This document shows, in pieces, positions 850 through 36,800 of a DNA stretch of 60,000 bases. Each line of letters begins with the position of its first letter. Within the stretch, counting starts at the first letter, position 1. The stretch is from Lytechinus pictus (Eukaryota), in contig NC_087252.1 of NCBI RefSeq assembly GCF_037042905.1, positions 1,738,001 through 1,798,000 of the forward strand. Reading direction: 5' to 3'. A program made the translations under genes and the position numbers. Under the pieces are notes generated by a model. The model was not told where the DNA came from and did not search any database. It was given only the letters and a program-made list of their open reading frames with translations.

Positions 850-1440
850 ACTGCTATCATGGAATCGCCCAACTATTACCTTAAGTTAGGAGATCAAGCC
901 AATTAATCTTTCGCTCCCAATTCAGCTCAGATATATATAGTACACGCCATGCAATGTTGTACAGAGCATGTATATTTTCGAAGGGTAAATGTGAATATTT
1001 AGCATATTTGGTTTTTCGACAATCAATCCCGCGCCTTCATCCTACCATGGACCTACTAGCATAGGTCCATGATCCTACCAATCAATGCATTATATTATAA
1101 AAGCCTATAATGAACCACTCCAAGAACAAAATGATATGGTGGCAATAAAGTTGTTTAAAACGTTATATAATAATATAGAGAACGTGACACGGGCCGGTCT
1201 ACGTGACAAATGTTTGGTGGTTGGTAGTTATTTTTTATACAGTGATTACCTATCAATTCTTAAAATTTTTATAATGTGTACATTATTTGAATTGAAGTTG
1301 TACTTTGTAACTTTTTGAGCAGCCAGTGCATTATTATGAATCACATAATCATCAGTCTTATCTAGGGTTAGAGTGTATGTGTAGAGGGATGGTAATCTAC
1401 ACGATCTAACGACTTCGTCAAGTTTAATATTCTCGCACAA
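850..1440 (+). repeat. Copy 1 (3' part) of a triplicated ~2-kb segment
   Basis: Colinear with 10530-11430 plus 12040-12060, and with 13190-13394 plus 17460-17870 (e.g. tcgcXcccaattcagctca, aaagcctataXtgaXccact; the terminal taatattctcgc is shared with copy 2). Confidence 0.9.
1046..1071. mobile_element. 26-bp palindromic remnant with 7-bp TSD (putative P-superfamily excision footprint)
   Basis: ATCCTAC-[catggacctacta gca taggtccatg]-ATCCTAC; absent from paralogous copies at ~10681 and ~13376. Confidence 0.75.
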
Positions 1441-2656
1441 AACTTGATCAAGGAAAATACAATTCCACTATGGGTTTGGCGCTGGTATTAATTCATATAC
1501 TTTCATGTACATACCAGTCACTCCGCCGCGCGAGCTAATTCGCACGTATTTATTCAGCTCGTATTCATGACCGCTCGGTTCATGAATACGTAATGAGGAA
1601 CGCAAGGGTCTAGTTTCTCTGCGTTTTACCGGGTTAATTTTCTGTTTTAAACCATAAACATTATATCGATAGAAAGGGGAAGAATCAAGGATTCGATATA
1701 TACCATAATTATCGACATATTTCATTAACTTAGTAAGGTAAACTGCCCTAGAACTTTGCCCCCGGAAAGATTCAAATCATTCAGCTTTAACGACGTATAA
1801 TACCATTTCATGATTCTTGCGTCCTTCAAATTTAATAACAGTTGTAAAGCTGAATTATCACTCTTTAAAATGAGACATAATTCATGGTTTTTCATTAATG
1901 AGGAGAGTCAGGAACCAGGGAAACATACCGCCAAGTCATTATGAGGGCCTGTCCAAAACGAGCTTCAAACGAGTTACGTAAATAGAGCATTCTGATTGGT
2001 CAACGCATTCCATGGATTCAACGCGTGATCGCAGGTCATGACCTTTCTACACATCGACTTTCGAAGCGAAACCCCGAACAACGACGTCGTCTACTTTCAT
2101 AGAGTATTTGTTCTTTCATACAAAGTTTATAGACGTAAAATTGTTTTTGATAGATTTTTCAATATAGAAGACTGACAAGAATGCAAGAAATTTAATGGGA
2201 TATTTCCTTATATCTCTGCATTCATTATTATAGCCATTCTAAGTGAGTAGAGTCGTATTTGTGTTTTATCAATAAACTCAGTCCCATGTATGCAATTCTG
2301 CGTTTTCTGAATTATGTACTTAGTTAACTTATTGATGCTGCCCCCCCCCCCGGCCGGTTTTGTTGCCAAGATTTGTTGAAAAGAATTACATACATGCACA
2401 CATCCCGTTTTCAGAAACAAACAAGAATGGATAGAACAATTAATAAATGTCAACATGCTTGGAAGTTTAGAAAAGCATAAAAAATACAAATGCACTACTT
2501 GCAAACCTGATCTAACCCAAAGACACCCTCCATAATTCATGTGTTTTGTTTTACTGTTCTAAATCATTATCAATCCATTTTATCAATTTTCTTTCTCCCA
2601 TTAGTTGATTTTGTTTTATTCACTAGTATTTCTGTTTATTTATTTGGGGGTGTGAT

Positions 2657-2972
2657 CAGGGCCAGATCCAGGATTTTCCAAAAGGGGAGGGGGTAAATAT
2701 TTCGTAGGAAATATTGACAAGCAAAAGTTTTCCCTCCAAAAATGACTGACATTTTGCCACATTTGAAATTAACAACCCCCCCCCCCAAAAAAAAAGGGGG
2801 GCTCACTTGTAAAGGAACCACATAATCCCATTTAAAATATTTGCTGCCACTCTAAGGGGGGGGGACACTTGTGTATTTACGGTATGTTTACATTTAAAAA
2901 AAATAGACAAGTTGCTCTCAATACTCTCAAGGGGGGGGGGGCACGTGTCCCCCCCCCCTGGTTTCACACCTG
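2657..2972. mobile_element. hAT-like MITE nested in the Academ-like element
   Basis: CAGGG...CCTG termini with G/C-run subterminals; 8-bp TSD ggtgtgat/ggtgcgat. Confidence 0.65.
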
Positions 2973-4049
2973 GGTGCGATGTATATTTCTATTTATCACG
3001 ATTCATTCTCCACCCTTTTCTCTGAACAATTACATTCCATCGTGCAGTGGGATACTTGGATATCATTTGTTCAACAGATCTCGTCTTCCTCCTCAATTTT
3101 AAATTCCTCATATTCACAGATCTTGTCCCACTACTGTGTTTTTTATTCATTTTCAAACACCTTTCTCTGTGGGAAACACCCATCTCTCTCCCTCTCTATT
3201 AGTGTTGCTCTGTCTGTCTCTCTCTCTCTTGATATTACATGTAATATTTTCCTCACACATCCAGCCGACTTTCTAATCGAACACATCTTTTTTTTTGGTC
3301 ATGCACAGAAACGTGTTTAAACAGTTGTGTAACTGTAACTTAAGTTCATACACATATTCTCTTCTTTTTCTTTATATCTTGATTTTTTTCTATTTCTTTC
3401 TTCATTTATTCTTCTATATTCTCATATTCAGATCTCCAGTGCAATACAATGCATGAATTCAAAATCTAGCTCATAGTAAATGGATATTCCTAAAGAAAAA
3501 AAATAGAAAGCATGTTCAATATCAGATCAATTTTAACAAGAAAAAAGAGTTTATTTCCAACATCAAACTCTTGAAACTCATGTTTACAAAACATATAAAT
3601 ACAAGCAAAAAACTTTGGCACCTAATATCATTCAAGGCAAGTACATGAAGAGAGTATAAGTGAATACTGTTTTTGTTTTACAATCAAACATGTTAATAAA
3701 GATAAAGGCAGTTTTACATATAATGCTCCCTGAATGTCTTTGGCAAGCAGACAGTAGTTGAGGTAAATATGAGTTAAAACAATTTTATATACAAGGAATG
3801 TATTGTTTAGGAAAGCCCGTCATCAGTGAAATAACTTTGGTAGTCATGACAGGAAACAAGTGAAATAATATTTGTATACAGAAGTCAGTGCCATCAAAAC
3901 TGCCTCATAAAAGAAATAATTCAGCCATACGTTTACATACATGTATATCTAGGTAATACATATTACAATATATGGAATTACTGGGGTCAATATACGTATC
4001 ACCAACTGTAATAATGTCCCCATTGTTAACATGTGTATGAGATGTTAAA

Positions 4050-5020
4050 CTGCCACTATGCACTCTCTAAATGGCAAGGAAAAAACAATTTATAAAAAGG
4101 TGATCATGAAAATATACATAATGTACATGTAAAAGTAGGAACAAGGGTAGTTCAATGCTCACCATCATGACAACTTGTACAAGTGCTTCAACATATGAAC
4201 AAAAAATTTACACATTTACATAAACAAAAAATTTACACATTTACATAATCATAAGTAGCAACAGCAACAGCAGTGTAAAATAATATACACAACTGTTTTA
4301 TAGGATATTGTAAATCACACACATATTGAAAAAGCTGCGTCAAAGTTCAAGAGGAAATACATGAACTGCACCTCTATATATTGCTAATGAAATAATTAGC
4401 CAATCTAACAAAATACATGTAACCATCATGTATTCTGCTTAAGCCTCACAATTGCTGTAAGAAACTTATCATTTGTTTCATATACATGTAACTACAAAAA
4501 CTATTATCTGAGTTGCCAAAATGATTGACCTGCAAGAAACTGCCACAATGCACTATCTAAATGGCAAGGAAAAACAATTTATAAAGAGGTGATCATGAAA
4601 ATATACATAATGTACATGTAAAAGTAGGAACAAGGGTAGTAATGCTCACCATCATGACAACTTGTACAAAAGGTTCAATACATGTACTGTATGTAAGCAA
4701 AAAAAGTTACACATTTACATAATCATAATCATAAGTAGCAAAAGCAACAACAGGGCAAAATAATAATAATAATATACACAACTGTTTTATAGGATATTGT
4801 AAATCACACACATATTGAAAAAAGCTGCGTCAAAGTTCAAGAGGAAATACATGTACTGCACCTCTATATATTGCTAATGAAATAATTAGCCAATCTAACA
4901 AAATACATGTAACCATCATGTATTCTGCTTAAGCCTCACAATTGTCGTAAGAAACTTCACATTTGTTTCATACAACTACGACAACTATTATTTCAGCTAC
5001 CAAAATGATTGACCTGCAAG
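4050..5020. repeat. Tandem duplication of a ~490-bp unit
   Basis: tgccactatgcactctctaaatggcaagg at 4051 recurs at 4541 and stays colinear to ~5020. Confidence 0.9.
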
Positions 5021-5491
5021 ACCTCAATGGAACTGGCAAGAAACGTATACATACACTGACTCATATGTATTGCAGTAAAAAGCAAGAATAAACATAACAT
5101 GGCAAGGTACGTGAAATATATGAAAAATGTGCATACTTGTGAAAAAAAAAATAGTTCAACTTCTTCTGTTATGCATAATGTGGAAATAGTGTAATGTTGC
5201 AGACACTTAATGATATACAAATAAAAAGGTATCACATGCATAAAAAACATGTGTAAATGCTCACCAACATTTCCACATTGCCTGTCATGCCTTCTTATAA
5301 ATGTTCTTTAAACAAAAATTATAACCATTAAAAAAAACATGTACATAATATAAAAGTAATAGCTATCATGAATTGATTCAATGTAACAAACTTCACCCTC
5401 ACAGCAGCCAATGAATACTGGCATATAATAGACTGATTAAATGACTGATGAATGATTTTAAAGGGCTACAAGAACATGACACAGAGAATGC

Positions 5492-5960
5492 CTACTCATA
5501 ATCTGAACAGTCTTCCTGCAAATCTTCAAACAGAGATAAATCACCATCAATGTCGATTTCAATGGTACCTTCGATATTTGTTTTATCACAAGGAACTTCA
5601 TCAAAATCAAAATCATAATCAAAATGATCAATATCAGAATCTTCTTCACTGGAGTCGCTATCACTTGCCAGTTTCTCTACAGCAGTAAGATTTTGGCACT
5701 GTCTACATCGGCAACCTGGCCCACAAAATCTACCCTCTTTTCTACATTTACATAAACGGTTTTGACATTTGCTCTTGGCACAAGAACAACCCCTTGTGAG
5801 ATATAAAACATTTGATTTAATCTTTTCAATACTTTCATCTGTGTCCCACTGGCATGCTACATGTACTTCCCCATCATCCCTGGATACAACAAAGCCGTAT
5901 AATTCAATGTCTGGATAATAGTATATGGGAATCTGTACTTTATCCCAAACAGTTAATAAT
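5492..5960 (-). pseudogene. 3' fragment of Academ-type transposase (W..P..YGF..WD plus CXC cysteine cluster and acidic tail)
   Basis: ORF 5492..6034: TVWDKVQIPIYYYPDIELYGF...QWD...GCSCAKSKCQNRLCKCRKEGRFCGPGCRCRQCQN then a D/E-rich tail; resembles tesmin/TSO1-like CXC C-termini of Academ proteins (recognition, not a database hit). Confidence 0.65.
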
Positions 5961-6251
5961 CTTTGCACACCGAAATCGCTCTCTAACACTAATATACAAA
6001 TTATGAAATGCTTTAAAATCCTTTTCCCAAACACTATGTTCTAAATTGTTTGTTCCTACATGGATGAAAACAGCCTTTGTAGAAAAGTCGAAGTAATTCT
6101 GAAAGATTTGACGAATGATGATCTTAACGATGTAACATTAGCCCCTGGAAAGCACAAAGTTTCAGAAGAAAAGGGTCCATTAAAAACAGCGTGTCGCACA
6201 ATTGAGTCTCCTATCAAAAGAACTTGGCATCCAGTCAGATGTGAAGGTGAT
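5960..6251 (-). pseudogene. Exon 2 of SGNH/GDSL-hydrolase-like cargo gene (frameshifted, 3'-truncated)
   Basis: Polypyrimidine+CAG acceptor before 6251; VLLIGDSIVRH (block I), CFPGA (block II), then in a shifted frame KAVFIHVGTNNL (block III). Confidence 0.75.
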
Positions 6252-7461
6252 CTGTAAAGGAAAAAAAAGAAAAGATTGCTTTTACAACAAAATAAATTCC
6301 AAACTAGGAAAGCAATAAAACAAAAGGACAGAGAGTTAAATGTTATTACAAAGAAAATAATTGCAATATGTAATAACATAACATTTAACTTCCTATCATA
6401 TATTTACTCAGAGCAAAATTACAATGTTCACATATAAAAATTTGTCAGCACTTAATGAAGAAGGACACGGTGGAAAAAATAGCAAACAAATCTATTGAAA
6501 TAGCAATAGAAGCGCCCATCCAAGTAATATTTTTGCCCAAAGCAAAAAGAATTTGCAGGCTCAGTAATTTACAATAAATAAAATGCATAGATTCATATTT
6601 TAGTTTATCAAAATATTGCTCATATTTCCTAACTATATTAAAAACAAATACATGTACATGTATGTTTCCCTCTTGAACTCCCATTTCAGGGTTTGAGGGA
6701 CACATCTCCATCAAAAAATAATGTTGCTGCTCCCCCAGAAAATAAACTCAGCAGTGTGACAATTCAATTATCAAAGCGTTGCTGTATCAGTATGGCACTT
6801 CTTAAAAATATCTGTACAATGACATTGTCTGTGTGGATACCCAAAGGCCGCAGAATGTTTCTTCTTTTTTTTTGGAGTGGGAAGGGGGAGGACTGAGCAG
6901 AACATAGCCTGGGATCATGCAAAAAATCATAATCGGATGGTAAGTTTTAGCTGTTTGTAATAAAATTTATAGCAAAAAGTGCAGTTATGATAATGAAAGC
7001 CCCCCCCCCCCCACCATATCAGGGCCCCTCAGGCCTCACCCATCTGCACAATTAATCATGTAATGACACATGTTTTTAAAAATGCAATAAAATTCAAATC
7101 TGAGTCTATGTCAGATTGTCACCTGAAAAATGCAAACTTTCTTGAATAAATCTTGGGCTAAAATGTCTTTTTGTCTCATCACAAAATATGAGTAAATGAA
7201 TGAGTTCCCATGGACGTTAACTTCTTGATTAGTATATTGCCTGAGTCTTGAATTTAAATTTTCAAAGAAAGTAGATCAAGCTTAGATCTAACATTAGATT
7301 CTACGATTAAATTGAATTCTAAAAAAAATCTATAATGACACCTTTGTTTACCAAGGTTTATTATTGAGGTTTCCATAATTCATTTTCAATTTACTTAATA
7401 ACTTTAATTCAATAATCAATTACAATAGATATCTATTAGTACTGACAACTAGAGAGAATAC

Positions 7462-7637
7462 CTGTAGCCAGGAGGCTCCTGACCCAGAGAGTAAAATGCA
7501 TACTCTCCCCTAGACCAAAAGCTTCGGTCTCTGTTATGTTGGTTGTTCAGCTGAACTCCGTTGGCTTCACTCACCAAACATGCCAAATACAGAGACCGAA
7601 GTTCTAGCGCGATCTGTACAGGGGACTCAATGGCCAT
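7462..7637 (-). pseudogene. Probable exon 1 of the SGNH-like cargo gene
   Basis: ATG at 7637, 58 codons + AG then GTATTC donor; the phase-2 join to exon 2 gives in-frame ...PPGY-R-SPSHLTGCQVLLIGDS. Confidence 0.55.
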
Positions 7638-7881
7638 ATGTTTATGTACTTAAGATCGGATAAAACGGGGAAGTGAATTTGCGCGACAGCCGAGGTTAGT
7701 CACTGTTTTTGTTCCTTTTAACTTAATTTTTCTCCGTTTTTGGGCAATTAATGCCAAGAGGGAATATTAATTTGCATTTTGGTCGCGTTAATTTTCAAAA
7801 TTTTTATTCATTAAAGACAAAAATTGAAGAGCCCCGACGGGGGGATTTCGCATTGCAAGTCCCCTAATGGTGGCTGCACGC

Positions 7882-7957
7882 TAGCGAGCCGTCTGTGTAC
7901 GAGGAGAATAAAAAAATTAAAAAATGTTAAAAAACTCCTCGAAACAGACGGCTGCTA
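7882..7957. mobile_element. ~76-bp TAG...CTA hairpin mini-element
   Basis: tagcgagccgtctgtgtacgaggag ... ctcctcgaaacagacggctgcta inverted arms; TSD unclear. Confidence 0.5.
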
Positions 7958-10812
7958 GCTGTCTAACTCTCCCCAAGATTTCTACTTTCCTTCTAAAAGA
8001 TCTATACCTAAATCATGTAAATGGGATACAACTTCATTTCCTCAATATGGGTTTTGTAGCCTTGGCAAAAAAAAAAAAAAACATGATGGTGACATGAACA
8101 TCGTTGAAAGTTTTCTGTCTTTTTAATGAATTCTTGTTTAAATATGAAGTCAATATTATAAAAATGTCAGAGATGAAGTTGTATATCCCATTCACATGAT
8201 TCAAGACTAGATCTACCTCTCTTATATGGAAAGTAGAAATCTCGAGAGCGTAAAATTTCTGGGTTTTTTTTCGCGGTACACGCAAATGTATGGGATGCAA
8301 TCCCTGGCTCCAAGGAGGGTAAGCACACGTTAATGAATGATATTTACTCTCTAGGAGCCTCATGGCTAGTCAAGAAGTCAGTCAATCTCAATCTGTCAAT
8401 TCCCTTTTTTTTTAGACAACTGTTGACAGTGTCATGTCACTAGTGTCACAGCTCTTGAGCTCTATCTCATTCTCAGTCTCACTCTCATTAATAGTCTGAT
8501 TTGGATGAAATGCATCAGAATATAAAGCACAAAATTAGATTGCAACCTCATGGAATAATTACAAAATAATTTCAAACTAGATATAATCTTTATTTCAAGT
8601 TCGCATGGCAATGATTTGGCCCGCACAATCAATGTGAGAGAATTGGTCACCAATCTTTTTAAACAAGACACAAAAATACACTAATGGGACTGACCCACCA
8701 GTTGGTTACTCCGCGCGAGACCATGGCTGACGTCATCACTCAATAAAATAAACAAGTACAAAAGAAGAATCAGCGTCAGTGCAGTTGACAAAATAGAAAA
8801 TTTGAGGTAGTTTCATCGTAAAATACGAGTACGAAGGAGATTTTGCGTCCCAGAGATATTTACACATGTTCATCACTAAAATATATTCTACAACATCGGA
8901 GGCTTCACGAAAGCCAAAAATTCTGAGGAGGGTCAGGACGTAAAAAACAACATTCTAATGAAAAATTCGATCTCCGATCCGGCTAAAATATTGCCTAGAT
9001 CTAAAGCATTATTTCAGGTTCAATTTTTTTCTGGATTACCACATATTTCATATCAAAATAAAGCTAAAGATTTCAAGATTTACTTACGGTTGCATTCTTC
9101 CATCTTGGCTTTTCCAGTGAAGAGTATGACGTCATTAGGACGAGACCTGCATGACTCTCGTGATATCTCGCGATCTACGAGAGTCCCGCTCGATGATTTT
9201 CGGGCGGATGGGATTCTGAATAAATTTCAGCGATCGTGCTCATTAGCATACGCGTGGCGCTCTGACTGATACTGTAAGTATTAGAACAACTTATTCTGTA
9301 ATTAATGAATCAGTTTTTACTTATATTCTGTGTTTTTCGTTCATATTTAATTCACCCGGTATTGATCCTTGCACTGTCATAGAGTAAATGGGACCGATCA
9401 TTAAAGTTGTTTTGTTGTGTTGGCGATATATATATATATAATGAGATGGGGCGAGGCCAACTCAACAGATGACGCAGGACACCATTATTTATATATATAT
9501 ATAAATTTTAACTATTATTATTATTAGCAAATGGTGGGAAAATTAGTTTAAAGTCGCTAGCGAGCGAAGCGAGCTAGAAAAAAAAATCGCCTTTTGAAAT
9601 TAAATACTTGTTATAAAGATTTTCTATATTAAGCATATAACATATGGTATTTTATTGTTTTTCCATTCAATTCATTTCGTTGGCTTCTTCATTTTCTTTT
9701 ATTTCCCCTCGGCTGTGGAACCAAACCCTTCCCGCACTGTACGCCAGTGCTTCAACTTAAAGCTTAATGCAGAAAGGGTCCATATAGGGGGGGGGGGCAT
9801 TATAGAGTCCTGTGATGATTAAAGACGAAAAGCCGCAACTGCCTGGAGTCTTGGGCAGCTGAGAGTCCCCCGTAGCTTTGGAGATTTAGCAAAAGTAAAG
9901 ATTAAAAGGCTTTTTACGGTAACTCTTGCCAGCTAGCGTAAAACCTATAGGTAGGGACATAATATTACGTATATAAGGGGATGATATGTCTAGCCCTAAT
10001 TCGCTAAGGACTTGTTTTAAAACCTGATTATAACAGTTAATTAATTGGAAGCTTACACTGTTATGATCGACTTCATGCACGATGTTACATGCCATCCATC
10101 TTTCGTCCCGTTCATTATTTGTTTCCCCTATTTTCTATTTTTCGATCTTGCTTTTGGCTCATCCATTCTACCTTCATTTCCGCTTTTATTTGCCCCTTCT
10201 CTTTCCCCGTCCCACAATCATAATGATTTATTTCCCTTTCTTACTAATCACACAATATTTCCTTTTTCACATGCTTTTCTTTTCTTGCTTTTCCCGCTGT
10301 TCTTCTATTTTCCCTTTTACGTTTTTTTCTTTTCACTTTTTCCCATTTCCCTTCCCTTTTCCCTTTTCTTATTTTTCTTCCTTTCTCTTTCTTTCTTTCT
10401 TTCTTCAATTTTTTTTTATTTTCTTTTTTTCTCTCTTCTTTTTTTCGTTTTTTTTCCTGTATTTTTCCCGTGAAATCCGCCAGGTGGGGGCGGGGCATTC
10501 TGTCTCCAGCCCAAACCCCGCCTGTTGCGCCACTGCAGATGCAGACCAATCTTTCGCGCCCAATTCAGCTCATATATTTAACATTATACACGCCATGCAA
10601 TGTATAGAGCATGTATTTTCGAAGGGTAAATACGAATATTGCAAGACCTTTTTGGTTTTTCGACAATCGATCCCGACTTCATCCTGCCAATCGATGCATT
10701 ATATTATAAAAAAATAAAAGCCTATAGTGATCCACTTCAAGAACATTATGGTGGTAATTGTTTAAAACTTTACGTAATAATATCGACATATAAAACAAAC
10801 GTGTCACGGGTC

Positions 10813-10991
10813 TAGTCTGCAGGCACAGACCCTGATTCAAACTTTGATCAACAAGTGTGCCTCTATGCAAAGACTATCACATTTCAAACTTGCTGTTTCA
10901 ATTCCTGAGCAAGAGGGCCTCCAGTACACAAGGCATGAGTAGGTTGCAATTAAGACCCTTTACTCGAGTGCAGGGTTTGCACAGCAGACTA
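10813..10991. mobile_element. 179-bp TAGTCTGC...GCAGACTA MITE (AcademH-like), second copy at 17559-17737
   Basis: Short TIRs, flanking (n)CACGGGTC direct repeat; empty site in copy 1 at ~1188. Confidence 0.7.
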
Positions 10992-11436
10992 GCACGGGTC
11001 GGCTTACGTGACGACATATGGCTTACAAAATGTTCGGTGGTTGGTAGTTATTTCATACAGTGATTACCTATTAATTTTTATAATGTGTACACTGTGTGAA
11101 GTGAAAATGTACTTTGTAACTTTTCGGGCAGCCAGTGCATGATTATGAATAACATAATCATCAGTCTTATCTAAGGTTGGAGTGCAGAAGGTAAAACAAT
11201 AAAAACATAATGACTACAAATAGTATGTCTTTAGGTGTAATTCTAACAAAATCAGCATGCGCTTGGCACTCGCATTAGATGACTATGGTGAGATATGTGT
11301 AATCTTAATGGATTCTTTTAAAAAATAGTCCTTAAAATATCCATGATTGGGGTCAATATACAGTATATATAAATTTCAGCTCGCGCTTTGCAGAGGGGTA
11401 GTAATCTACATGATCTAACAACTTCGTCAAGTTTAA

Positions 11437-12039
11437 AGGACAAGTCCACCCCAACAAAAACTTGATTTGAATAAAAAGAGAAAAATTCAACAAGCATAAC
11501 ACTGAAAATTTCATCAAAATCGGATGTAAAATAAGAAAGTTATGGCATTTTAAATTTTCGCTTCATTTCACAAAACAGTTATATGCACATCTCGGTCAGT
11601 ATGCAAATGAGGATACTGATGACATCACTCACTCACTATTTCTTTTGTATTTCATTATATGAAATATGAAATATTTTTATTTTCTCGTCATTGTCATGTG
11701 AAATGAAGTTTCATTCCTCCCTGAACACGTGGAATTCCATTATTTTAACATTTTGTGTTTCAGGCAAGGAGGTCCTAATCGTCAAATCCGTAAAAATTGA
11801 AATATTGCATAATTCAAACAATAAAAAACAAAAGAAATAGTGAGTGAGTGACATAATCGACTCTCTCATTTGGATGTAACTGGCTCGTTCATATAACTAT
11901 TTTGTTAAAAATAAGCAAAACTTTGAAATGTCATAACTTTCCTATTTTACATCCGATTTTGATGAAATTTTCAGCATTGTGCATGTCTGATTTTTCTCTA
12001 TTGATTCAAATCAACATTTTTCTGAGGTGGACTTGACCT
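11437..12039. mobile_element. Kolobok-like MITE, TTAA TSD
   Basis: TTAA-aggacaagtccacc...ggtggacttgacct-TTAA, long TIRs; empty site aagtTTAAtattctc at ~1421. Confidence 0.88.
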
Positions 12040-13102: not shown

Positions 13103-13394
13103 TCGGTACTTTTTTTTCTTGTATTTTTCCCGTGAAATCTGGCAGGTGGGGGCGCAGTCTGCCCCCTGCCCAACCCCCGCCTGTTGCGCCATTGCTAGCA
13201 TGGAATCGCCCAACTATTACTTTAAGTTAGGAGATGCAGACCAATCTTTTGCGCCCAATTCAGCTCAGATATTTAACATTATACTTGCCATGCAATGTAT
13301 AGAGCATGTATGTTCGAAGGGTAAATACGAATATTGCAAGGCCTATTTGGTTTTTCGACAATCGATCCCGACTTCATCCTGCCAATCGATGCAT

Positions 13395-15257
13395 AGGAAG
13401 CAATATGTCTTTTTAAACGGGTGCAATTCTCAAATGAAAAAAAATAATTGTGGAGTTCCCCAGGGTAGTATCTTAGGCCCGATTTTGTTTATAGTTTATA
13501 TTAATGATTTTTGTAGATCATCAGACGTTCTTTCTTTCATTCTCTTTGCGGACGACTCTAACTTATTTTTTTCACATAAAAATCCTCTTCACCTTGCTAA
13601 TATAATCAACTCTGAACTAGAAAATGTTACCGAATGGATAAGAGCAAATAAATTGTCACTAAATCTTCAAAAAACAAAATACATGTTGTTTAGCAACTCC
13701 ATAAATACACTTCCTGTTGATGTTATTTTGGATGGAACTCCCTTGGAAAATGTATCCCATATTAAGTTTCTTGGAATAACAGTCGATAATAAGCTCTCAT
13801 GGAAATTTCACATAGATAACATATGTAAAACTATTTCACGCAACATTGGTATAATTAACAAGCTTAAATTTTGTTTACCATTATCGTCCCTGCTTACATT
13901 ATATTCATCCCTTATATTGCCTTATTTAAATTATGGAATTTTAGCGTGGGGTAACACACAACAAACACTCTTAGACAAATTACTCCTATTACAAAAGAAG
14001 TCTCTACGTATTATATGTCACACGGCATATTTGTCTCATACTGACCCATTATTTTTTTAACATAGAATATTGAAAATTAAGGACTTATATTTGTTTAATC
14101 TCGGTCAATTTATGTATAACTATAACAACAACAACCTCCCAAATGTATTCAATTCAATGTTTCCAAAAAATCAATCCATTCACAACTATCCAACAAGGCG
14201 ATTGGGTGAATTTCATTTACCACTTTTAAGAACTTTGCGGGCTCAGAACACATTTATATACGATGGACCGAAGTTATGGAACTCACTTCATAATGATATA
14301 ACAAATGCAAAATCTTTGAACTCTTTTAAGACTAAATTCAAATTATCTCTATTAAAACCTTATAATATACTCCCAAATTAATTTTAATTCATCATTTCTG
14401 TCAAGTCATCATCATTATTATGTCAAGTCATCATCATTATTAATTTAAACTAAAATTAAAACATAAAATTATTATCCTTTTTTTATTAAAAAAATCTGAC
14501 ACAAGTCCTTCTCAGATGTGCTCATTATTGTGTCTATCCTCTCCTCTATTTTCTCCTCTCCAGTCCGCTTATCCGCCTTTCTGCCGGTTATTTGTTTAAC
14601 GGCATCAATCACATTTTTCGTGCATTATATTCTTTCCAGGTTATTTTATATATTTTTTCTCCTCTTATACACATCATTGAATCCAGTTTGCTTGAGTCCA
14701 CGACGGCATGTGTTCTATCTACGTACAGCAGCACCCATCCATCTTCTCAGGGCATTCTCCCCCTTTTTCCCTTTTTTTTTTTTTTCTTCTTCTCAAGTTT
14801 TTCTGGGGGGGGGGGGGTGGGAAGGGTAGATATTTTTAGGACGGGTTGTTTTGTCCTTCACCAAACTGTATATTTTTTATTACTTTGTATTTATTTTGTG
14901 AGTATTTCCCTCTCATTTATTCATTCTTTTCTCATTTGATTATCTGTATTTATACTTTGTCATTTTGTTATTTGTTGTGTTATCTATTTCTTGAGGGGCC
15001 CACATTGTACAAGCATTGCTTTTTAGTGGGTCCCTCCATTTCCATCTTAATTTAATTTATATTGAAAAATAGTATATATATTTAAAACCTACAATGTGTT
15101 GCCCAAATCGTCTAAGTGTTTTTTTTTTTTCACTACATATGTATAATTAATTTTGTTTGCAACGGATACAAATATTTATGTTTTATATATGGTATACAAT
15201 TTGTTTTTGTTTGATGGAAGTGAAATAAATGAATTTGAATTTGAATTTGAATTTGAA
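13395..15257 (+). mobile_element. 5'-truncated CR1/L2-group LINE (RT C-terminal half, 3' UTR, (ATTTGA)n tail)
   Basis: GVPQGSILGPILFIVYIND, FADD, KFLGITVDNKLSW; in-frame stop at 14058-14060 then ORF 14070..14381; tandem hexamer tail. Confidence 0.93.
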
Positions 15258-15268
15258 TTATATTATAA

Positions 15269-17460
15269 TGCAGGGAGATCCTCTTTCACCATATCTTTTC
15301 ATTTTATGCATAGAAGTATTAGCGCATAATATAAGATATAATAATGATGTTAAAGGAATTTCCTTTGGAAAGGAAGAAGTAAAACAGGTTTTGTATGCAG
15401 ATGATATGTCTATTTTTGTCCGAGATCTAGATTCAGTCAAAAAAGTAATAGAAATTTTAGAAAAATTCAGAAAAGTATCAGGACTTAGAGTTAATAGCGA
15501 TAAGACGAAGGTTTTATTACTAGGTTCCTCTCAAGGAAAATCATATGATTTATCTTTTGGCCAAAAGGTGGATTTTATAAAGATTATCGGTGTATTTTTT
15601 TCTTTAGATGTAGAAGTAAAAGAAAGATTGAATTATAAAGAAATATTAAGTAAAATAAAGAAGTTGTTAAACTGGTGGAAGCAAAGAGATTTAACTTTGA
15701 TGGGCAAAATACAATTATTAAAGCAATTTATCTTTTCAAAATTCATATATGTGGCATCTCTCACACCAATCCCAGGATGGGTTTATGTTGAACTTGATCA
15801 GTTAGCTTTTACTTTTTTGTGGGTTGGCAGAAATAAGATCAACAAAAGAACGATGTATTTAGATTACCATCAAGGCGGCTTGAAAATGATGAATTTTCAA
15901 TGGTTAATAAAGGCACAGAGAGTTATGTGGATTAAACGACTAAAAGAAAATAATGCAATGAAATGGAAACAATATTTCAATTATGCCACAAAACATCTAG
16001 GAGGAAATTTTATATTTTCATGCGATTATTTGCTTGGAGTGTTGGAGATAGCATTGCCGCAATTTTATATAGATTTGCTAGAAGTATGGATAGAGACGAA
16101 GGATTTTCGATTAAAATCTGAAACATATAAAGGAAATGAGATATTTTTTAACAATAAATTTGTACGAATTGAAGGGAAATGCATATTTAACCAAAAATTA
16201 TATGAAAAAAATATTTACAGACTGAAACATATTATGGATTGTGATGGAAACTTAAGGTCATTTTCGTACTTCCAAAGACAGGGTTTAAACATAAATGATT
16301 TTCATTTGATAGAGTCAATTTATAAAACTTTTCCAGTCAGCTGGAAACAAAATATGAAAATAGATAGCAAAGAGGCTTCTCTTAGGGAAGAAATATCATT
16401 TATATCTGGAAAAAGAATTTTGTCAATAGAGGAGTTAGTATCTAAAAACGTTTATGCAAATTTTATGAAATGTAACTTCACAATACCTGATGTTTTCGAA
16501 AGGTTAAAAAACAAATATAGTTTTTCTTATGAAAAGATTGAACACATTTTTATGAGACCAAGACAATGTACTCTGAACAGTAGATTAAGAGAGTTTCAGT
16601 TTAAAATGTTACACGGCATTGCTTATACAAATCATCACTTGTTCCGTTTTAAAATCTCACAGAATAATCTTTGTTGTTATTGTAAAAAAGAGGAAGAAAC
16701 ATATCGCCATCTATTTTTGGAATGTGAATATGCTTGTCTGGTTTGGGATAATTGTAAGAAGATGTTTGGTTTATTTCGACGGGCAATTTAAGCTGGGAGG
16801 AAATTCTTGTAGGTGTAGAATTAAAGGACGAAGGAAAGGAACGTTTAGTCAATCATTTTCTAATCTTTGTTAAATTTTTAATCTTTAAGGGAGGGAAAAG
16901 GGTGCACTTATAACCATGGATGAAATTAAAAGGAAATTTAAAGAAGAAGAATGGGAAGAAAGAAGGCTGGCGCTAGGTAGAGGTAAGATGTCTCTACATG
17001 TAAGGAAATGGGAAAATCTGAATTAAAAGAATATATAGGGAGAGTGAGGCAAAGGTATATATATACAACGAGAGACAAAACCACACAAAAAATACAAAAA
17101 TAAATAAATACGGAGAATTGTAGTCCCTTCCATGTAGAGTATAGGCATAAAAAGGGGAGGGTGCTCCTAACCTAGGGACGGGGGGGGGGGGGGGTGGGAG
17201 GTAGAACAACACTTTTTATCTTTTTTTTTCTCTCTTATCATTCATACATCTTGTTAATATTTCATTTTGTAATTGCTGAAACGCATTAGTATTAATTTCT
17301 AGTATCTTTGAAGTTTGATGTATAGTTTGTATAATTATATTTGTTATGGATTTATTGTATAATTTATAATCATGTTTCAAATAGTTTGTACAACTTGCTT
17401 ATGGAATGTGAATGTTTATTTTGATTAGAGAGAATACAATAAAACATCCTTAAAAAAAAA
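15269..17460 (+). mobile_element. 5'-truncated Tx1/L1-clade LINE ORF2 with poly(A) end
   Basis: QGDPLSPYLF, YADD, GGLKM, C-terminal CCHC knuckle CCYCKKEEETYRHLFLEC; AATAAA and A-run near 17437-17460. Confidence 0.92.
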
Positions 17461-19559: not shown

Positions 19560-22500
19560 TCTGATCACATGTATTGATCTGCCATGTATACTTCTGGTTG
19601 ACTCTTACCATTTATCCTCCTCACTGTGAAACTGGACTCTTATCTCGAACTTTTTGAACTTTGCTACTTTTCTTCCCACTTTGGTGAGACCAATGTTATT
19701 CATAATACTGTATAGAATGTTTTCATATTTTGCGCGTTTCTTGTTTCTCTTTCCTATTTATTATTCTCGATTACTCTGTTTTGTCTCAACTGTTCCTCCT
19801 GTATCCTTTTCCTGTTATTTCTATTACTTTATTCTATTGCTTACACAACTTGATGTCAGGTGATGATTTCTACTGTTGTAATACCAATGCACCTTTGCAA
19901 TGTTTTTATATGTACGATTCTGTATTCCCTTTTCAGGGTATAGACAACGATGAATTCAGTGCAATATTTCAAGATACAGTGACATGACTGTACAGATTTT
20001 GGTAGACATATGTTTAATAAACTCTCACAAAATAACGATGAATCCATTTTAGCAGGTTTCTTAACTGTAAATATTTTGGGGATGATTCTTACCTCTCAGT
20101 TCAACGATGTTAATAAAAATTTTAGTATTCTTCATTTCAATTCCCGCAGTCTAAACAAAAGCTTCAATGCTATCTCTACTTTCATATCCACTTTGGGTAT
20201 CAATTTCTCAATATACGTTTTTTTTTGTGAAACATGGATCTGTAATAATACTCCAGGTTATTCTTTTGTCCACTCTACCTTTTGGCAAAGGTAGCGTGTT
20301 GCTTTATTAGTTCCTGATACTTATAATTTTAATGTCCATAATGGTCTTTTGCAACCTTCAAATAATTATGAATCACTTTTTATTCAAATTGACATGTTTA
20401 GAGAAAAGAACATTATAATAGGTGTAATATACGGGAAATCTCAATCAAATATAAATGAATTTTCAACTATCTTTAAAAATTGTTTCAACAAGCTTGATTC
20501 TGAATACAAACAGGTTTATTTAATGAGTGACTTTAACATAGACATTTTGAAATATACTAATGCCACTATAAAATGTGTAAGTAATTTCCTCAGTATAATA
20601 CATTCTCATGTTCTTATTCCTTTCCTGAGCTTAGTCTACGTCTTATCAATGATGATACTATAAATGCCTTTAAACATGAGCTCTTAGATCATAACTGGAC
20701 TAAATTATTTGATATTACTGATACAACACTTGCTTTCGACAAATTTCCTGATACGATTACTTTTTTATTCAATGAAGTTTTTGTAACAAAATCATATAAA
20801 TCTATTCGTAAAAAAATAAAGAAATAAGCATAGAATATAAAAATCATATACATGTATATTAAACCCTTGTGAAAGCAACAGGGAAAATATGTTAAAGCAA
20901 GAAACTATATAAATAGGTTATTAAGGTTTGCTCGTAAAGACCAAACCATTTTCTTTGCAATGAAGGGAAACAAACTTGGCAGCTCATCAATGATATATTA
21001 CATAAAAAAAAAAAATTATCAAATTATATCAATGTAGATGAGAAGTGAATCACAGATTTTAAAGAGATTTTTAATAATATTTTTTCAACATTAGTTTGTC
21101 TTCAAATAACAAGTGCACCCCAACAAAAAGTTGATTTGAATAAAAAGAGAAAAATCCAACAAGCAAAACACCGAAAACTTCATCAAAATCGGATGTAAAA
21201 TAAGAAAGTTGTGACATTTTAAAGTTTTGCTCAATTTCACAAAACAGTTATACGCACATCCTGGTCGGTATGCAAATGAGGAGACTGACGTCATCCACTC
21301 ACTATTTCTTTTGTATTCTATTACATGAAATATGAAATATTCTAATTTTCTCCTCATTGTCAAGTGAAACAACGCTTGATTCCTCCATGTACATGTGGAA
21401 CAAACATTGCTTAAAACAATGTGATTCAGTCAAGTTGGTCCCTATTATCAAATCTGTAAAACATGAAATATTGTATGATTCAAACAATAAAAAAAAAAAA
21501 GAAATAGTGAGTGACGGACATCATTTACCGTCTCATTTGCATGTCACTGAGTTGTGCATATCACTGTTCTGTGAAAAATAAGTGAACTTTAAAATGTCAT
21601 AACTTTCTTATTTTACATCCGAATTCGATGAAATTTTCAGCGTTATGCTAGTTTGATTTTTCTCTATTTATTCAAATCAACATTTTTCTGGGGTGGACTT
21701 GACCTTTAAACAATTCCTCGAACAGCTCTGATAATTTAACCAAATTCTTGTCAATGCAAAATTCAAATTCTCTTTATTTCAAACCTATTTCTGAGAACGA
21801 TATCACTGATGTTGTTAAAAAGCTAAACTGTACAAATAGTTGTGGCATTGATAATTTTAATCCTCGAATTATAAATGTGATATATTGTATAGTCAAACCA
21901 TTATGTTTTATCTTTAATTTGTCTATCGTGACTGGTATTGTACCTTTCAAATTGAATATTGCAAAAGTTATACCTGTTCATAAGAAGAGTGATGTTCATG
22001 ATGTTTTTAATTATCGACCAATTTCCATACTTCCTTATTTTTCAAAATTTTTGGAAAGACTTATTTATAATCGACTTTATGATTTTTTATGTACGAATTC
22101 AATTTTAAATGAATGTCAATATGGTTTCCTAAAGAATGTTTCAACCGAAATGGCTGTAATTGATTTACACGATTATTTAATTAATGTTTTCAATAAAAAA
22201 CTTTATTCGATTGGTGTATTCTTAGACTTAAGCAAAGCTTTTGACACCATTGAATTTTCAGTACTTTTATCAAAACTTTATTCTTATGGAATAAGAGGAT
22301 TACCTCTTCAGTGGTTTCAAAGTTATTTGTACAATAGAATTCAATATGTTTCTTTTAACAATATTTTGTCCAACCCATCAGTAGAGCTTTCATGCGGCGT
22401 GCCCCAGGGGTCAATCCTCGGGCCCCTCCTTTTTGTGATCAATGACCTGCCATTTTGTTCTGATAATTTGAAATTCATTTTATTTGCTGATGACACCAAT

Positions 22501-23640
22501 ATTTTATTTACTTCAAATAACATTGCTTCTCTATATGACATATTAAACATTGAATTATTAAAAGTTTCGAACTGGTTTAAATGTAATAAATTGGTAATTA
22601 ATGCTGATAATTAGTCTTACTTCATATACTTTTGTTTCCAATACCGACGTTTATCAGCTGATATCCTCGATTCATTTAAATTGGAAATGTCAGGAAACTT
22701 AATCAAACGTGTTACCTCAACCAAATTCCTAGGCATCACTATTGACGAAAATTTATCTTGGAAAGCTAAAATTAACAGAACAATATCTAGAAATGTTGGT
22801 GTCATCAGCAAACTTCGCCATGTCTTGCCTCAATCCGGTTGGCTAATGTTGTATAATACTCTTATTTTACCGTATCTCAGTTACTGTACTGCCTGGGCAA
22901 ATACTCATCCAACCAAACTTAAATGTTTATACCTCCTGCAAAAGAGGGTTGTCATAATAATTTCAATTTCTCATTATCAAGCTCATTCTAGACCATCACT
23001 ATGTAAGCAATTCAATATATTATATGTCTACCAGTTAAATTACTATATGTGTGCAATTCTAAACATTTAAACGCTGAACTTTACTAAATACATATCGGAT
23101 ATGTTTGTGAAGAACAGTTCAATTCATACTTATAATACTAGAAACAGGAATCAATACCACGGATGGAATGTGATTACAGAAGTTGATTTTTATTCATGTA
23201 GGCATCATGCTCCTACAATCTGAACAGATTTAAGCACAATCTAAAGCTATATTTGATCAAACGTGACTCTCGTTGTATTGTAAATGATTTTTGTCTTCTT
23301 TCTACTCTCAGCCTCCCCCCTCTGTTTTTCATTCTCTCCTACCCTTTACATGTATGTTTATTCTGGGTTTGTCTTGGTGCAAGACGCAATTCATTTTTAA
23401 TTACTGAATATTCACTGAATTTGATCTCCACTTTTATTAATTGATCAAATATTATGTTATTAAGGGAGCTGTCTTGACAAGACCTTTATGTTTTTTTTTT
23501 ACAACTGTACCTAATTTCAATACTCTATCTATACAAGTATGATTTGAAGTGCTTTATTTCATCTTGAATTGCATGTTTTTATCCATTTATAATTTCACAT
23601 ATTTGTATACTTTCTCCCACTCACGTGTACTGTATTAAAG
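19560..23640 (+). mobile_element. Old, near-full ORF2 CR1/L2-group LINE (APE endonuclease + RT), many disablements, split by a MITE
   Basis: ILHFNSRSLNK, ETW, DFNIDIL (APE); NYRPISIL, FLDLSKAFDT, GVPQGSILGP, FADD (RT) across ORFs 20010-23070. Confidence 0.9.
21105..21705. mobile_element. Kolobok-like MITE (same family as 11437-12039) inserted in the LINE
   Basis: Homologous TIRs; right end ggtggacttgacct-TTAA. Confidence 0.85.
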
Positions 23641-25727: not shown

Positions 25728-26690
25728 CAGGGGCGGATCCAGCTTTCGCCAATGGGGGGGCCGAAAAATATTTTCATCAACATTTTTCTCGATTGGTCGC
25801 TATAATCTGATTTTTTTTTTTTTTTTTTTGGGGGGGGGGGGGGTTCAGGGGGTAGTCCTAACTAGAGACTGAAGTTTTAAGTATGTTAGTTTTTATTGTT
25901 ATAAACAAGATAAGGTATCTCATGTGGTCTTAATATATAATGCGAGCGCGAAGCGCTAGCTCAAATTCTTTGATATTTTATGTCCTTAGACCTGAAGATT
26001 CTGAGGAGATTTTGTAATCATGAAAAAGATAAGTATCCAACTAAACAATGCGAGCGCGAAGCGCGAGCCGAAATTTTATCATAGTAACGTGAAAAGGGAC
26101 TCAATTAGGACTGTTTTTAGTGATTAATGAAGAGGATACAAGTATCACCAATTAAATAATGAGAGTGCGAAGCGCGAGCTCAAAATTTTTGATATTCCGA
26201 CCTGAAAACTGGACAGTCTAAGCGCGTTTTTATTTAAATACAGAAAAAGCTGTGTGTCTCAAACAATTAAATGCGAGCGCGCACCGCGAGCTGAAAATTT
26301 TTATATAAGCAATTTGTGTAAAACAAACAAAACAATTAAAGCTTGATGTGCGAGCTAAAATATTGTGTGCAAATTGATTTCAGATCTGGATATATAAGTG
26401 TCATTTAATCCTCTTGAATGGGATTCATTGGCACAGGCAATGCGAGCGCGAAGCGCGAGCGAAATTTTTTATATAAAGTTCTTTTTCCAATTCTTCCCCT
26501 CACCCTTTTCTTGTTTCCTTTCGGGGTCGGGCCGGCCGTTACGAGATTGTAAATTACACATCCTGGGTATGATACCTATTTCCTACTTTTCTTTAGTGTT
26601 TTTCCTATAGTACACTTTTTCTGCAGGTTGTCAAAAAATAGGGGGGGGGGCCGGGGCCGGCTCGGCCCCCTCCTGGATCCGCGGCGCCTG
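25728..26690. mobile_element. hAT-like non-autonomous element with GCGAGCGCGAAGCGCGAGC motifs
   Basis: caggggcggatcc ... ggatccgcggcgcctg termini; no clean TSD; abuts and truncates the Penelope ORF. Confidence 0.7.
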
Positions 26691-27540
26691 CTTTCACATC
26701 CGCTAACGAATGTCCAGGGAGGCAGAAATGTCTGGCAACAGGAAGGTCGGTACGTTTCTTCTGAATAGATGATTTGTGGTCATTGAAGCGCATTCGGAAT
26801 TTCGTGCTGGTTTCACCAATATAGATTGCATGGGGGCAGCGTGCGCAGAACAAACAGTAAAGCATGTTACTGGCATCGCAGTCATGTCTCTGCGGGTGCA
26901 GAGTAACATTATTTGCAATTTTAATTGTGGTGTCAGTAATGTGTTTACAGATTTGACATCTGGGTTTGTCACAAGGTATGTTACCTCTTGGATGTTCAGG
27001 TGTCGGGAGTCTAGTGATCACAAGCAATTTCCTCAGATTGGGAGGCTGACGCTGAGCATGAAGAGGGTTTTCTCCGACTATTTTCCCTAGCTTGGGATCT
27101 AGAGCCAATGTTGACCATGCCCGCCTTACCTGTTCTACGAATTTCTTGGTATCGGGATGGAAAGTGGTCACTAGAGGGAGTCGTTTTTTCTCATTGACCA
27201 AACGGTCCTTACTAAGTAGATCTTTACGAGATTTCCTCTTTACTCTCCGAATGGTCTCTGAAATCAATTTGGGAGAATACCCTCTCCTTATGAATTGTCT
27301 CCCTAGTATAAGGGCTTCCCTGTCAAATTCATCCTCTTTAGATATGATACGGCGAAAGCGTAGCATCTGACTATAGACAATGGATTGCTTTATGTGTTTT
27401 GGATGGAAAGAATCAAATCTCAAATTATGAGGAGGAATCAGTTGGCTTACGGTATATACACAGATGTATTCAAAGTGTTCATTTCTTGGTCGATAGAAAC
27501 GGATACATCAAGAAAATTGATTTCCTTCTTTATATATCTA
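26691..27540 (-). mobile_element. Penelope-like retroelement ORF fragment (RT thumb + GIY-YIG endonuclease)
   Basis: ORF 26605..27423: SFHPKHIKQSIVYSQMLR, RGY, PCDKPRCQIC, LYCLFCARCPHAIYIGET...RFNDH...PVARHF. Confidence 0.92.
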
Positions 27541-33873: not shown

Positions 33874-36800
33874 GTAAATGATTTTTCATATTCTTAGATT
33901 TTATCCGATAATAATCAACATAAGACTATGCACACACAACCTCCTACTCGAAAAAAGAAAGAAAATGGAATACACTATTGTCCTCACAAGCTGATATCCG
34001 GTTATAGGCGCCATTGAGCGTCAAAATCTCTCTTACACAGCGTAAACTTTGAATATTTGACGTTCCATACGCACTTCATGAAAAGTTGACGCTCCAGAGT
34101 CGAATATGTTTAAATTTATAATCATACTAAAAATAGTTGTCAATCATGAAACACATTTGTATAATCATGATAATAATCTAAGTCATCAAAATAAAAGAAT
34201 CCTATTGTCATGATAGTGCATATTTTAGAGAGATTCAAATAATATCTGCCCTACTGAAACTGAAACATATTCAGGCCTATATAGCTTCAACAGGTACAAC
34301 GACTATATATGAACTCCATGGCAGACAATGATGTTTCAACAGTAGCTTTATTTTTCTCTTCCTGTGATTTTTTTTTCAAAAATCTTTAACTTAAATTATT
34401 TCTGCATAATGCTAAAAATGAACCCTAGGGGTCATAGCAGCACCCCAAGGGTGCTAACCTTCACGGTGGAGTGTGTTCCTTTCGGATCTTTGAAATATTT
34501 CCAAAGAATGGAAATTAGAGAAGTAAAATATAATAATGAAAAATAAATATTGTATAAAATGTAATTTCTTGAAGGTGAGTCGCTACAGACTGCAATGACG
34601 ATTATCACGTGGTACAGAGGGGAGATAGCAACCCAGAATGAAGGATTTGAGTTTGGTCCAGATTTCTCGCTGTTATTTGAGCATCCTGGGATATCAGATA
34701 CCGGGAGATACTACTGCAGGGTGTCTAATCATCAAGGGGTCCTCAGCTCAAACCATGTCGATCTTACAGTGTTAGGTGAGGTACACTGTTAAAACTGTGG
34801 TGTTAAAACTGACACCAGTTTGGTGTTAATAGAGGACCACACCCCGAGGTGTTTAAATTACACCCAAGATATTGAACATAACACCAAAGAGTGTAAATGT
34901 AACAACCAAAGGTGCTGTAATAACACCTATAGGTGTTAAACTAACACTGTCAATTTAACAGCGGTGTAAAATAACTGGTGTGGTCCTCTATGTACACCGA
35001 TTAACACCACATGCAGTTTTTGCTGTGTACATGAACCATGTTTATCTAGAATAAATTAATGGTGCAGTTTCGATAAAAGTGGACTTTTGTTTAACCAAAT
35101 TCCTTTCTGGGGGGTGTTTCATGAAAGGACTTGTCGGACGTTTTATCCGACAAGTCCCATTTTATCCGACAGTTACCATAGTAACAGTACCTCTCTGCCA
35201 ATCAACATCAGATAAAGATGTCAGATCTGACAACTTGTCGGATGAAAATGTTGATGAAACACTCCCCAGATGCCGCCATCCGTTAAAGTCTCACGATGGT
35301 GGATCTCCTGCCTTCCAGACTGCAAATTATTTTCAACAAAAATTATGACTCATTGTAGGTCTGCATTTCATTTCAGATTTATTTCAGAAACATTAAAGTG
35401 TTGTAAAGTTATTATTTTATCAGCGTTTTATACAATTATGTTAAATGCCATGTTTGATCATCTCGTTAAGGGGGGGGGGGGCTATACATAGTTTAGTGGG
35501 ACGCAGGTAAAAACGAAATCAATCAAACAAACTAACTAGCTCGTATATGGAATAATAATAATTGTTACGGAATGACTTGCACTTATCCAATACTGTTACC
35601 TTTGTTGCTTCTTAAGTTCAAGAATTTGATGAGGTTCAAGTGACCCAGTGTGAAGGAGATCCGTTTGATCAGGATTCACCATGTATCGTCAAAGTCCACC
35701 CAGACCAGGACATCCTGGAACTTGATTGCATCGTAGAGGGCGCCCGCCAACCTGTTCTTCTCACCTGGCATAATGCGGGTGCACTACACATTCCACTGAA
35801 CACCACATCTTCCAGCGAGAAAATACTGGAAGATGGAACATATCTAAAGAAGATATCTTTGAGACTGCACACCGAAGAGATGGGATCGGAGCGAAAACAG
35901 TTGATCTGCTTGGCTCAAGGTCCCAACGCTACTGAAACCGTAAACGTCACTATTCAATTTGAACCAGAAATATCCGAAGAAGGTATGTTAAAAAGATTCA
36001 TGATGATTTTTCTCTACTGTCTGAAAAAGCAAAATGATGAAATACTTGCAGATTCGAAATTAGTTAGAAGATCATTGTCTTATATCCATGCTCATTTCAT
36101 CTGGGCCATAACCAAAGTTTTGTCCCAGGGACACCGTAAAATTTTCTCCCCGTGTAAATCAGTTCAGTCAACTCCGTTTCTCATATTTATTACTTATTGT
36201 TAATTGATAATAACGAAATAATAAAAAGCAAAACAAAACATGGATACTTTCTCTGTTGATGGGCCAGACAAAATAGATATTGGTTGAATTATTGGAATTA
36301 GATAAAGTACATGTATACGGCAACGTAAATTTGATGGAATAAAGTATACTTTTAGTTAAAAACCCTTTTAAACACAGGGTGATTTCAACTGTTTACTTTT
36401 CGTTAAATATAAGCTCCTTTTATAATCTACGATATCATTTCTACGGCACTTATTTAACCATTTATGATTATTTTATTCCATATGCCGAAGCAGACTATTT
36501 CTATTATATATGTATATATATATATATATATATATACATATATAATATCTGATGCATATTTTTGTTCTTGTTTTGCCCCACTCATCCTCATTGCCCAGGG
36601 GCGTATCTGATCCATGCTCCGGATGGGGGCGGGGTGGCAAAGTGAAGAAAATATAAAAAATCACCCCACCCCCATCTAGAGCATCAATTACGCCCATGGG
36701 CAATGAGGATGAGTGGGGACAAAAAAAAAATGTATTACGATTTATTATGAAATCAGAATGAAATTACAAACGTTGCATGAACTATATATATATACATGTA

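Follow-up and report, generated by a model that had tools for sequence, protein, structure and literature searches.

The 60,000-nt stretch of Lytechinus pictus NC_087252.1 analysed here (the window; all coordinates are those of the whole stretch) contains a 7754-bp DNA transposon at 1515–9268 with the remnants of two minus-strand genes. One is an SGNH esterase gene, with its first coding segment at 9088–9095, intron 1 (GT...AG) at 6252–9087 and a truncated exon 2 at 5955–6251, and the other is the C-terminal end of a transposase open reading frame (ORF) at 5492–5954. CAGTCA opens both element termini, and the terminal inverted repeats (TIRs) at 1515–1557 (the 3′ end of the element) and 9216–9268 (its 5′ end) match imperfectly over 43 and 53 nt, respectively. 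When the comparison was anchored at the ends, equally high scores came from 3 of 5000 random 60-mers of the window, the top score of 108 in this null pointing to a near-self match; a local unanchored test was weaker, with about 1.2% of 1969 random pairs scoring as well. ATAC stands on either flank as a target-site duplication (TSD; 1511–1514 and 9269–9272). Four public sequencing runs were mapped on positions 1000–9800 of the window, and joints, contigs and depth per bin were scored. The DNA run X9 (organism B) provided the empty site, in the form of one contig (depth 59.8, short side 38 letters) that fuses 1510 to 9269 with 4 shared letters. In run X1 (organism A), a 4223-nt contig consists of 3380 other letters and then a match beginning exactly at 1515, which is read as a second insertion site; X1 depth was not taken as copy number, the type of this run not being established. 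Because of its boundaries and the X9 empty site, the element is real and moved as a unit, and the TIR and 4-bp TSD boundaries given in an initial annotation of this DNA hold.

The transposase remnant at 5954–5492 (−) covers the end of an XPG/FEN1-like region, a TCR/CXC cluster, an acidic tail and the stop codon, and gave an above-cut-off match to PF03638 TCR (E 3.3e-7). A search of longer proteins with this tail found 5 matches among 331 candidates. Three of these proteins, from Strongylocentrotus, Diadema and an ENA contig, are 1730–1770 aa long and carry DUF6589 and TCR, and the window tail is 54–66% identical to their C-termini only, from about residue 1570–1620 (66% to residues 1619–1709 of P0001). 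The PF03638 match and this homology bear out the CXC-type transposase tail of the initial annotation. PF03638 is above cut-off in P0001–P0005 as well, and in L001, a metagenomic locus described below, TCR is below cut-off for the full ORF and above it in a sub-range. DUF6589, which we take to be a mark of Academ transposases, is above cut-off in the transposases, and their SIDN, GD, GDWH and DExHE motifs are invariant in 6/6. The sole match of the transposase profile among PDB sequences was the lin-54 CXC (E 0.031). The window copy retains only the end of the nuclease region, and the nuclease fold was tested on L001: a model of this region (predicted local distance difference test score, pLDDT, 56) matched XRN2/Rat1/XRN1 at E ~1e-4, then EXO1 and FEN1, and the Atlas returned Pox_G5 and XPG at 0.79–0.83, as leads only. 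A helicase check found no long unexplained ORF in 11029 of the 16195 nt of L001; the window copy is deleted. Academ elements are recognised by a Cys8 finger and pyrimidine-purine termini, and we know of no other superfamily in which a DDE-like region is fused to a FEN1/XPG-like nuclease. In PMC10045372, AcademX is described as having 3–4-bp target duplications and encoding a nuclease. From domain layout, fold and TSD length, we label the element an internally deleted AcademX-like DNA transposon.

The esterase remnant at 6251–5955 (−) encodes SGNH blocks I–III with 89–98% identity to residues 1–102 of P0009, a 529-aa L. pictus protein (XP_054761708); the block III piece alone found P0009 at 98% and P0010 of L. 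variegatus at 92%. These intact relatives begin with MQP|SPSHL (P0009) and MQS|SPSHL (P0010). ATG-CAA-CC (ATG at 9095–9093) at 9095–9088, some 170 bp in from the 5′ terminus of the element, is followed by a phase-2 GTAAGT donor and encodes M-Q-P, and joining this segment to the phase-2 acceptor at 6252/6251 yields the N-terminus of P0009. Blocks I–III and the acceptor at 6251, both present in the initial annotation, are supported by the identity to P0009 and by the two N-termini. X1 contigs break exactly at 6251 (end) and 9088 (start), as a spliced branch would cause, and contigs of X1 and X5 end at 9117, which is 9088+29. In X5, presumed by guess to be an RNA run, depth is ~108 on the exon versus ~5–28 on intron 1. 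The likely transcript end lies near 3721, in the non-coding 3′ region at 1558–5491 (−); an X5 contig stops at 3721, and X5 depth drops from 93.7 to 0 in the following bin. This region also holds a tandem duplication of ~490 bp (4047–4537 and 4537–5021, 86%).

The window copy is dead, being frameshifted, truncated and without the D/H block, and is of value only as a pointer to intact relatives. Because a one-base shift near 6101–6104 separates blocks I–II (frame −3) from block III (frame −2), it can yield only a 67-aa peptide; the initial annotation missed this frameshift, and its description of the gene as in frame is withdrawn. The deletion junction at 5955/5954, with tblastn edges at 5955 and 5953, puts the transposase tail out of frame behind SGNH codon 102. 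The transition after ...RCAKII into the CXC tail had thus been correctly seen, but the junction is not at ~5960 and is not in frame. An in-frame SGNH–transposase fusion in the window copy is ruled out by the frameshift together with the out-of-frame junction. In X9, contig matches stop at 5954 on one side and begin at 5955 on the other; the tail contig, with a match to 5783–5954 followed by 393 other letters, fits an undeleted parent in organism B. Contigs of X1 and X5, which we would assign to one single copy, span both the frameshift and the 5955/5954 junction with 0 gaps and 8–9 differing letters. Because these contigs cross the two lesions ungapped, another copy or allele probably carries both, and the deletion is probably not private to the window copy.

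Relatives point to a linkage of the two genes. The esterase alignment, run against metagenomes, produced 12 pattern matches and a single confirmed locus, L001, in which an SGNH exon (31% to P0009) stands behind a phase-2 acceptor at 491/492, nearly the position found in the window. Downstream of this exon, and on its strand, an uninterrupted 2050-aa ORF (2904–9056) carries DUF6589 and TCR and is 40–42% identical to P0001, P0003, P0005, P0006 and P0007 over ~1100–1200 aa. The transposase profile was also run on the 171 proteins of the esterase search and matched strongly in one, P0071. This single predicted protein joins SGNH residues 1–204 (31% to P0010) to a transposase C-terminus at 212–409 (E 9.5e-74), and appears to have arisen by a deletion similar to, but independent of, that of the window copy. 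Both transposases on long ENA contigs (2/2) are paired with a family esterase on a contig of equal size (P0001/P0014, 20595 nt; P0006/P0016, 24657 nt); a third esterase, on a 16855-nt ENA contig, has no equal-sized partner among the matches listed. Esterase identity (29–52%) tracks the identity of the transposase tail (49–67%) across 5 elements, the 10 pairs drawn from them not being independent. Locus scans with the esterase gave no match in viral and genome contigs, and those with the transposase gave none in viral, metagenome and genome contigs, yet the latter missed L001 itself. The layout of L001, P0071, the ENA pairs and X9 support the multi-gene Academ parent proposed at the outset, with an intron-bearing esterase upstream and the middle lost. 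A separate LINE (long interspersed nuclear element) ORF1 insertion had been named as the outcome that would overturn that proposal; that outcome was not seen, since L001 shows the linkage and other lineages point to it.

Three further features of L001 were recorded. A ~250-aa insertion in the transposase core (~4860–5560) carries motifs GDGRCF...GHFDL, which we take to be OTU-protease-like; Pfam gave Peptidase_C65 only at E 0.14, and no match was found in the PDB. A perfect 49-bp inverted repeat (3048–3096 and 3425–3473) lies close to where the open transposase frame begins, and an imperfect one lies at 9156–9409.

An esterase profile search returned 43 clusters at E ≤ 1e-30, its listing covering the best 150 of 8176. 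A midpoint-rooted tree was built from the 127 of 171 proteins that cover the SGNH domain, P0071 being too short. A 97/90 branch of this tree sets 51 of the 127 SGNH domains off from the rest, ORF1-like proteins whose esterase is C-terminal falling outside the group, and the deepest split of this family places the L001 protein on one side and the relatives of the window on the other. P0058, the best match of P0071, falls inside the 51-member group. Active-site residues were counted in 45 of the 51 members after six near-duplicates were dropped: the catalytic S, G, N and H are present in 45/45 and D in 43/45, and the equivalents of H191 and S228, mapped through the 4C1B alignment, in 40/45 and 39/45. 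H191 and S228 are described as transposon-specific esterase residues in PMC3905857. Among solved structures, 4C1B, the ZfL2-1 ORF1p esterase, is the best match, at E 1e-25 versus 1.9e-8 for the next, and the next protein matches after the family are fish ORF1-like proteins; SGNH clusters of the Atlas, at 0.91–0.92, served as leads only. In the core family, the esterase domain begins ~10–70 residues from the N-terminus with no preceding coiled coil, and is followed by a Lys/Arg-rich tail (13–14 of 20 residues). The esterase appears to come from a pool of retrotransposon ORF1-type esterases, and the tree gives no direction of transfer. Two longer predicted family esterases, P0137 and P0083, match Schlafen AlbA_2 (E 3.8e-11) or, weakly, SAM_PNT, and may be gene-model fusions or domestications.

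Intron 1 of the window copy holds a nested 455-bp high-copy miniature inverted-repeat transposable element (MITE; TAGAC...GTCTA) at 7511–7965, with a 9-bp duplication, ACTCTCCCC, at 7502–7510 and 7966–7974. X1 and X5 contigs skip it with a 7501–7966 joint of 9 shared letters, and depth in its bin reaches 8586 in X1 and 493448 in X9. The exon at 7637–7462 with which the initial annotation had opened the gene is an artefact of this MITE. Its start codon is a false one, and 127 of its 176 nt, the ATG included, belong to the insertion; with the MITE removed, the frame is closed by a stop 56 nt upstream of the 7462 donor and contains no ATG. Its peptide had no match in any relative, and X1 and X5 contigs pass through 7462 unbroken. 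PMC10045372 gives AcademH 9–10-bp target duplications and an encoded helicase. The MITE is probably an AcademH-type non-autonomous element nested in an AcademX one, a 9-bp TSD being common to other superfamilies too. An older fold-back repeat with raised depth lies at 7976–8242 in the same intron (arms 7976–8040 and 8170–8242, 77%). Rfam gave 0 matches in 1000–12000 of the window, and the ORF at 8880–9269 (+) had no Pfam match.

Outside the element, local duplications adjoin it at 9489–10699/12157–13394 and 10704–11161/17450–17901 (87% and 92%, respectively). A 300-aa frame at 26605–27507 (−), which matches GIY-YIG weakly and below cut-off (E 0.003), is probably a Penelope-like remnant, and frames at 13300–14060, 15229–16791, 21703–23070 and 40342–40932 resemble, by eye, fragments of LINE reverse transcriptases. 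Likely host exons lie at 35616–36203, 50555–50950 and 55655–56038 (+); they show a C2-set Ig-like domain (E 0.0027) and, in two pieces, a resemblance to a P-loop GTPase (AIG1 at E 0.13), which we take to be IFI44-like.

In structure and ancestry, we consider the element very likely to be a non-autonomous deletion derivative of an AcademX-type transposon with a spliced SGNH gene. The order of the parent, shown in L001, is 5′ terminus, spliced SGNH gene, one large ORF and 3′ terminus. The SGNH gene of the parent encodes the esterase and then a conserved Pro/Arg/Lys-rich tail, and its large ORF a Cys-rich N-terminus, the DUF6589/DDE transposase, the XPG-like nuclease and CXC. One deletion would have taken SGNH codons 103–529 and ~1600 transposase codons, at least 6 kb, from a parent of ~14–15 kb. 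The derivative would then have been mobilised in trans, creating the 4-bp duplication, and the MITE would have inserted into the window copy later. The esterase itself may have been drawn from the retrotransposon ORF1-type pool, gained introns and descended with the transposase since.

Several points weigh against this account. The 9088/6251 joint is not among the 15 of 50 joints listed. Depth in the raw RNA run X21 is zero over 3940–6879 (~6% of the run read), and expression of the element gene is therefore at most sample-dependent. The 51-member group was chosen from a quick tree before the branch was tested. Linkage in DNA is shown by L001 alone, a distant relative of the family of the window, and the 11029 nt of L001 examined (of 16195) revealed no termini; the ENA pairs rest on equal contig sizes, and P0071 is a gene prediction. 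Transposase scans that might have revealed Academ elements without an esterase found nothing, not even L001. Finally, the DDE model is of low confidence (pLDDT 43), and its top fold match, the P-element transposase (rank 1/48161, Z 5.8, root-mean-square deviation 5.9, 228 aligned), is within noise.

Three other origins were weighed. An origin from a texim-like or domesticated family of host genes, repeatedly captured as neutral cargo and selected for the host, is improbable. It would accommodate the spliced multi-isoform NCBI genes of both Lytechinus species, the cross-species pairs of ~90% identity and the Helitron-free texim SGNH genes reported from sea urchins in PMC4021074, and the gene neighbourhood was seen for a minority of the 51 members. 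However, L001 and the window agree in position, orientation and intron phase, linked members stand on both sides of the deepest split with identities that track the transposase, and each Lytechinus species has at least three divergent paralogues, as expected of transposable element families. Less probable again is an element from another DDE superfamily with 4-bp duplications. The comparison with Academ was by description only and the DDE fold test had a noise-level top match, but the combination of a DDE-like region, a FEN1/XPG-like nuclease and a 4-bp duplication fits AcademX as described in PMC10045372. That the SGNH piece is a LINE (CR1/L2/RTEX) ORF1 fragment landed by chance in an Academ copy is very improbable and largely refuted by L001. 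In its favour, a LINE ORF1p esterase is the nearest solved structure, H191/S228 are kept and fish ORF1-like proteins are the next matches. Against it, introns interrupt the gene, and its phase-2 acceptor has a counterpart in L001 at almost the same place; its esterase is N-terminal with a basic tail where ORF1p esterases follow a coiled coil (PMC3905857); the ORF downstream in L001 encodes a transposase instead of a reverse transcriptase; and the linkage recurs across lineages 29–52% identical.

With the deleted AcademX derivative as the preferred reading, the role of the enzyme can be addressed. The element has no RNA step, so the esterase cannot be there for reverse transcription. We tentatively favour an active accessory deacylase that would act on a host protein or lipid, be tethered by its basic tail to nucleic acid or the nucleus, and aid germ-line expression or transposition. 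Somewhat less likely, by analogy with what is proposed for LINE esterases, the enzyme may act on membranes or lipids, bringing RNA or the transpososome to membranes for cell-to-cell or horizontal spread. The family retains H191/S228, but a Pfam scan of P0009 and P0010, signal peptides being outside its reach, found no transmembrane or membrane-related family, the Lys/Arg-rich tail resembles a nuclear or nucleic-acid-binding segment, and a cut-and-paste element requires no cytoplasmic particle. Host-serving or neutral cargo would come well below these two, and other roles, such as RNA binding, complete the range. The ZfL2-1 esterase is active and binds liposomes, and has no known target (PMC3905857).

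The known hosts of transposon-borne SGNH esterases in the literature surveyed are retroelements and fish Helitrons. No report of an esterase in Academ was found there; Repbase, the main Academ paper and supplements lay outside this coverage and may record one. An intact, conserved esterase in a DDE cut-and-paste element uncouples the enzyme from reverse transcription. It is possible, if short of an even chance in our estimate, that an old AcademX lineage acquired a LINE-type ORF1 esterase, furnished it with introns and a basic tail, and kept it catalytically intact as a standing accessory gene in dozens of divergent families, maybe beyond echinoderms. If so, transposon esterases would target the host (silencing, germ-line access or cell transfer) and not retrotransposon particles. 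A two-gene element permits a clean assay, excision with versus without the esterase, and Lytechinus is a laboratory model genus. The findings also suggest that several annotated 'uncharacterized' SGNH genes of sea urchins would be transposon cargo.

Compared with known systems, the element shares with AcademX the 4-bp target duplication, the nuclease fused to the transposase, the cysteine cluster and the pyrimidine-purine start (CA). It differs in the separate, spliced SGNH gene, catalytically intact in the intact relatives, upstream of the transposase and, in L001, in the extra ~250-aa insertion in the transposase. The ORF1p esterases of CR1/L2/RTEX elements (ZfL2-1, 4C1B) have the same catalytic S/G/N/D/H, H191/S228 and arginine-rich stretch and likewise stand upstream of the mobility gene, whereas the esterase here sits at the N-terminus and precedes the basic stretch, its gene has introns, its partner is a DDE protein instead of a reverse transcriptase, and its family forms a branch of its own. 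The texim genes of fish Helitrons, as described in PMC4021074, are also intron-containing SGNH genes beside the mobility gene of a DNA transposon; they are set apart by description, since Helitrons are rolling-circle elements and the element here has TIRs, a 4-bp duplication and a DDE/XPG protein. Bdelloid long terminal repeat retrotransposons with a GDSL ORF3, and Terminons, offer a further parallel (PMC5408684 and PMC6431247), namely an accessory esterase with intact catalytic residues shared by unrelated elements. However, these are retroelements whose esterases reportedly do not cluster with LINE esterases, whereas the Academ-linked family keeps the LINE-type residues.

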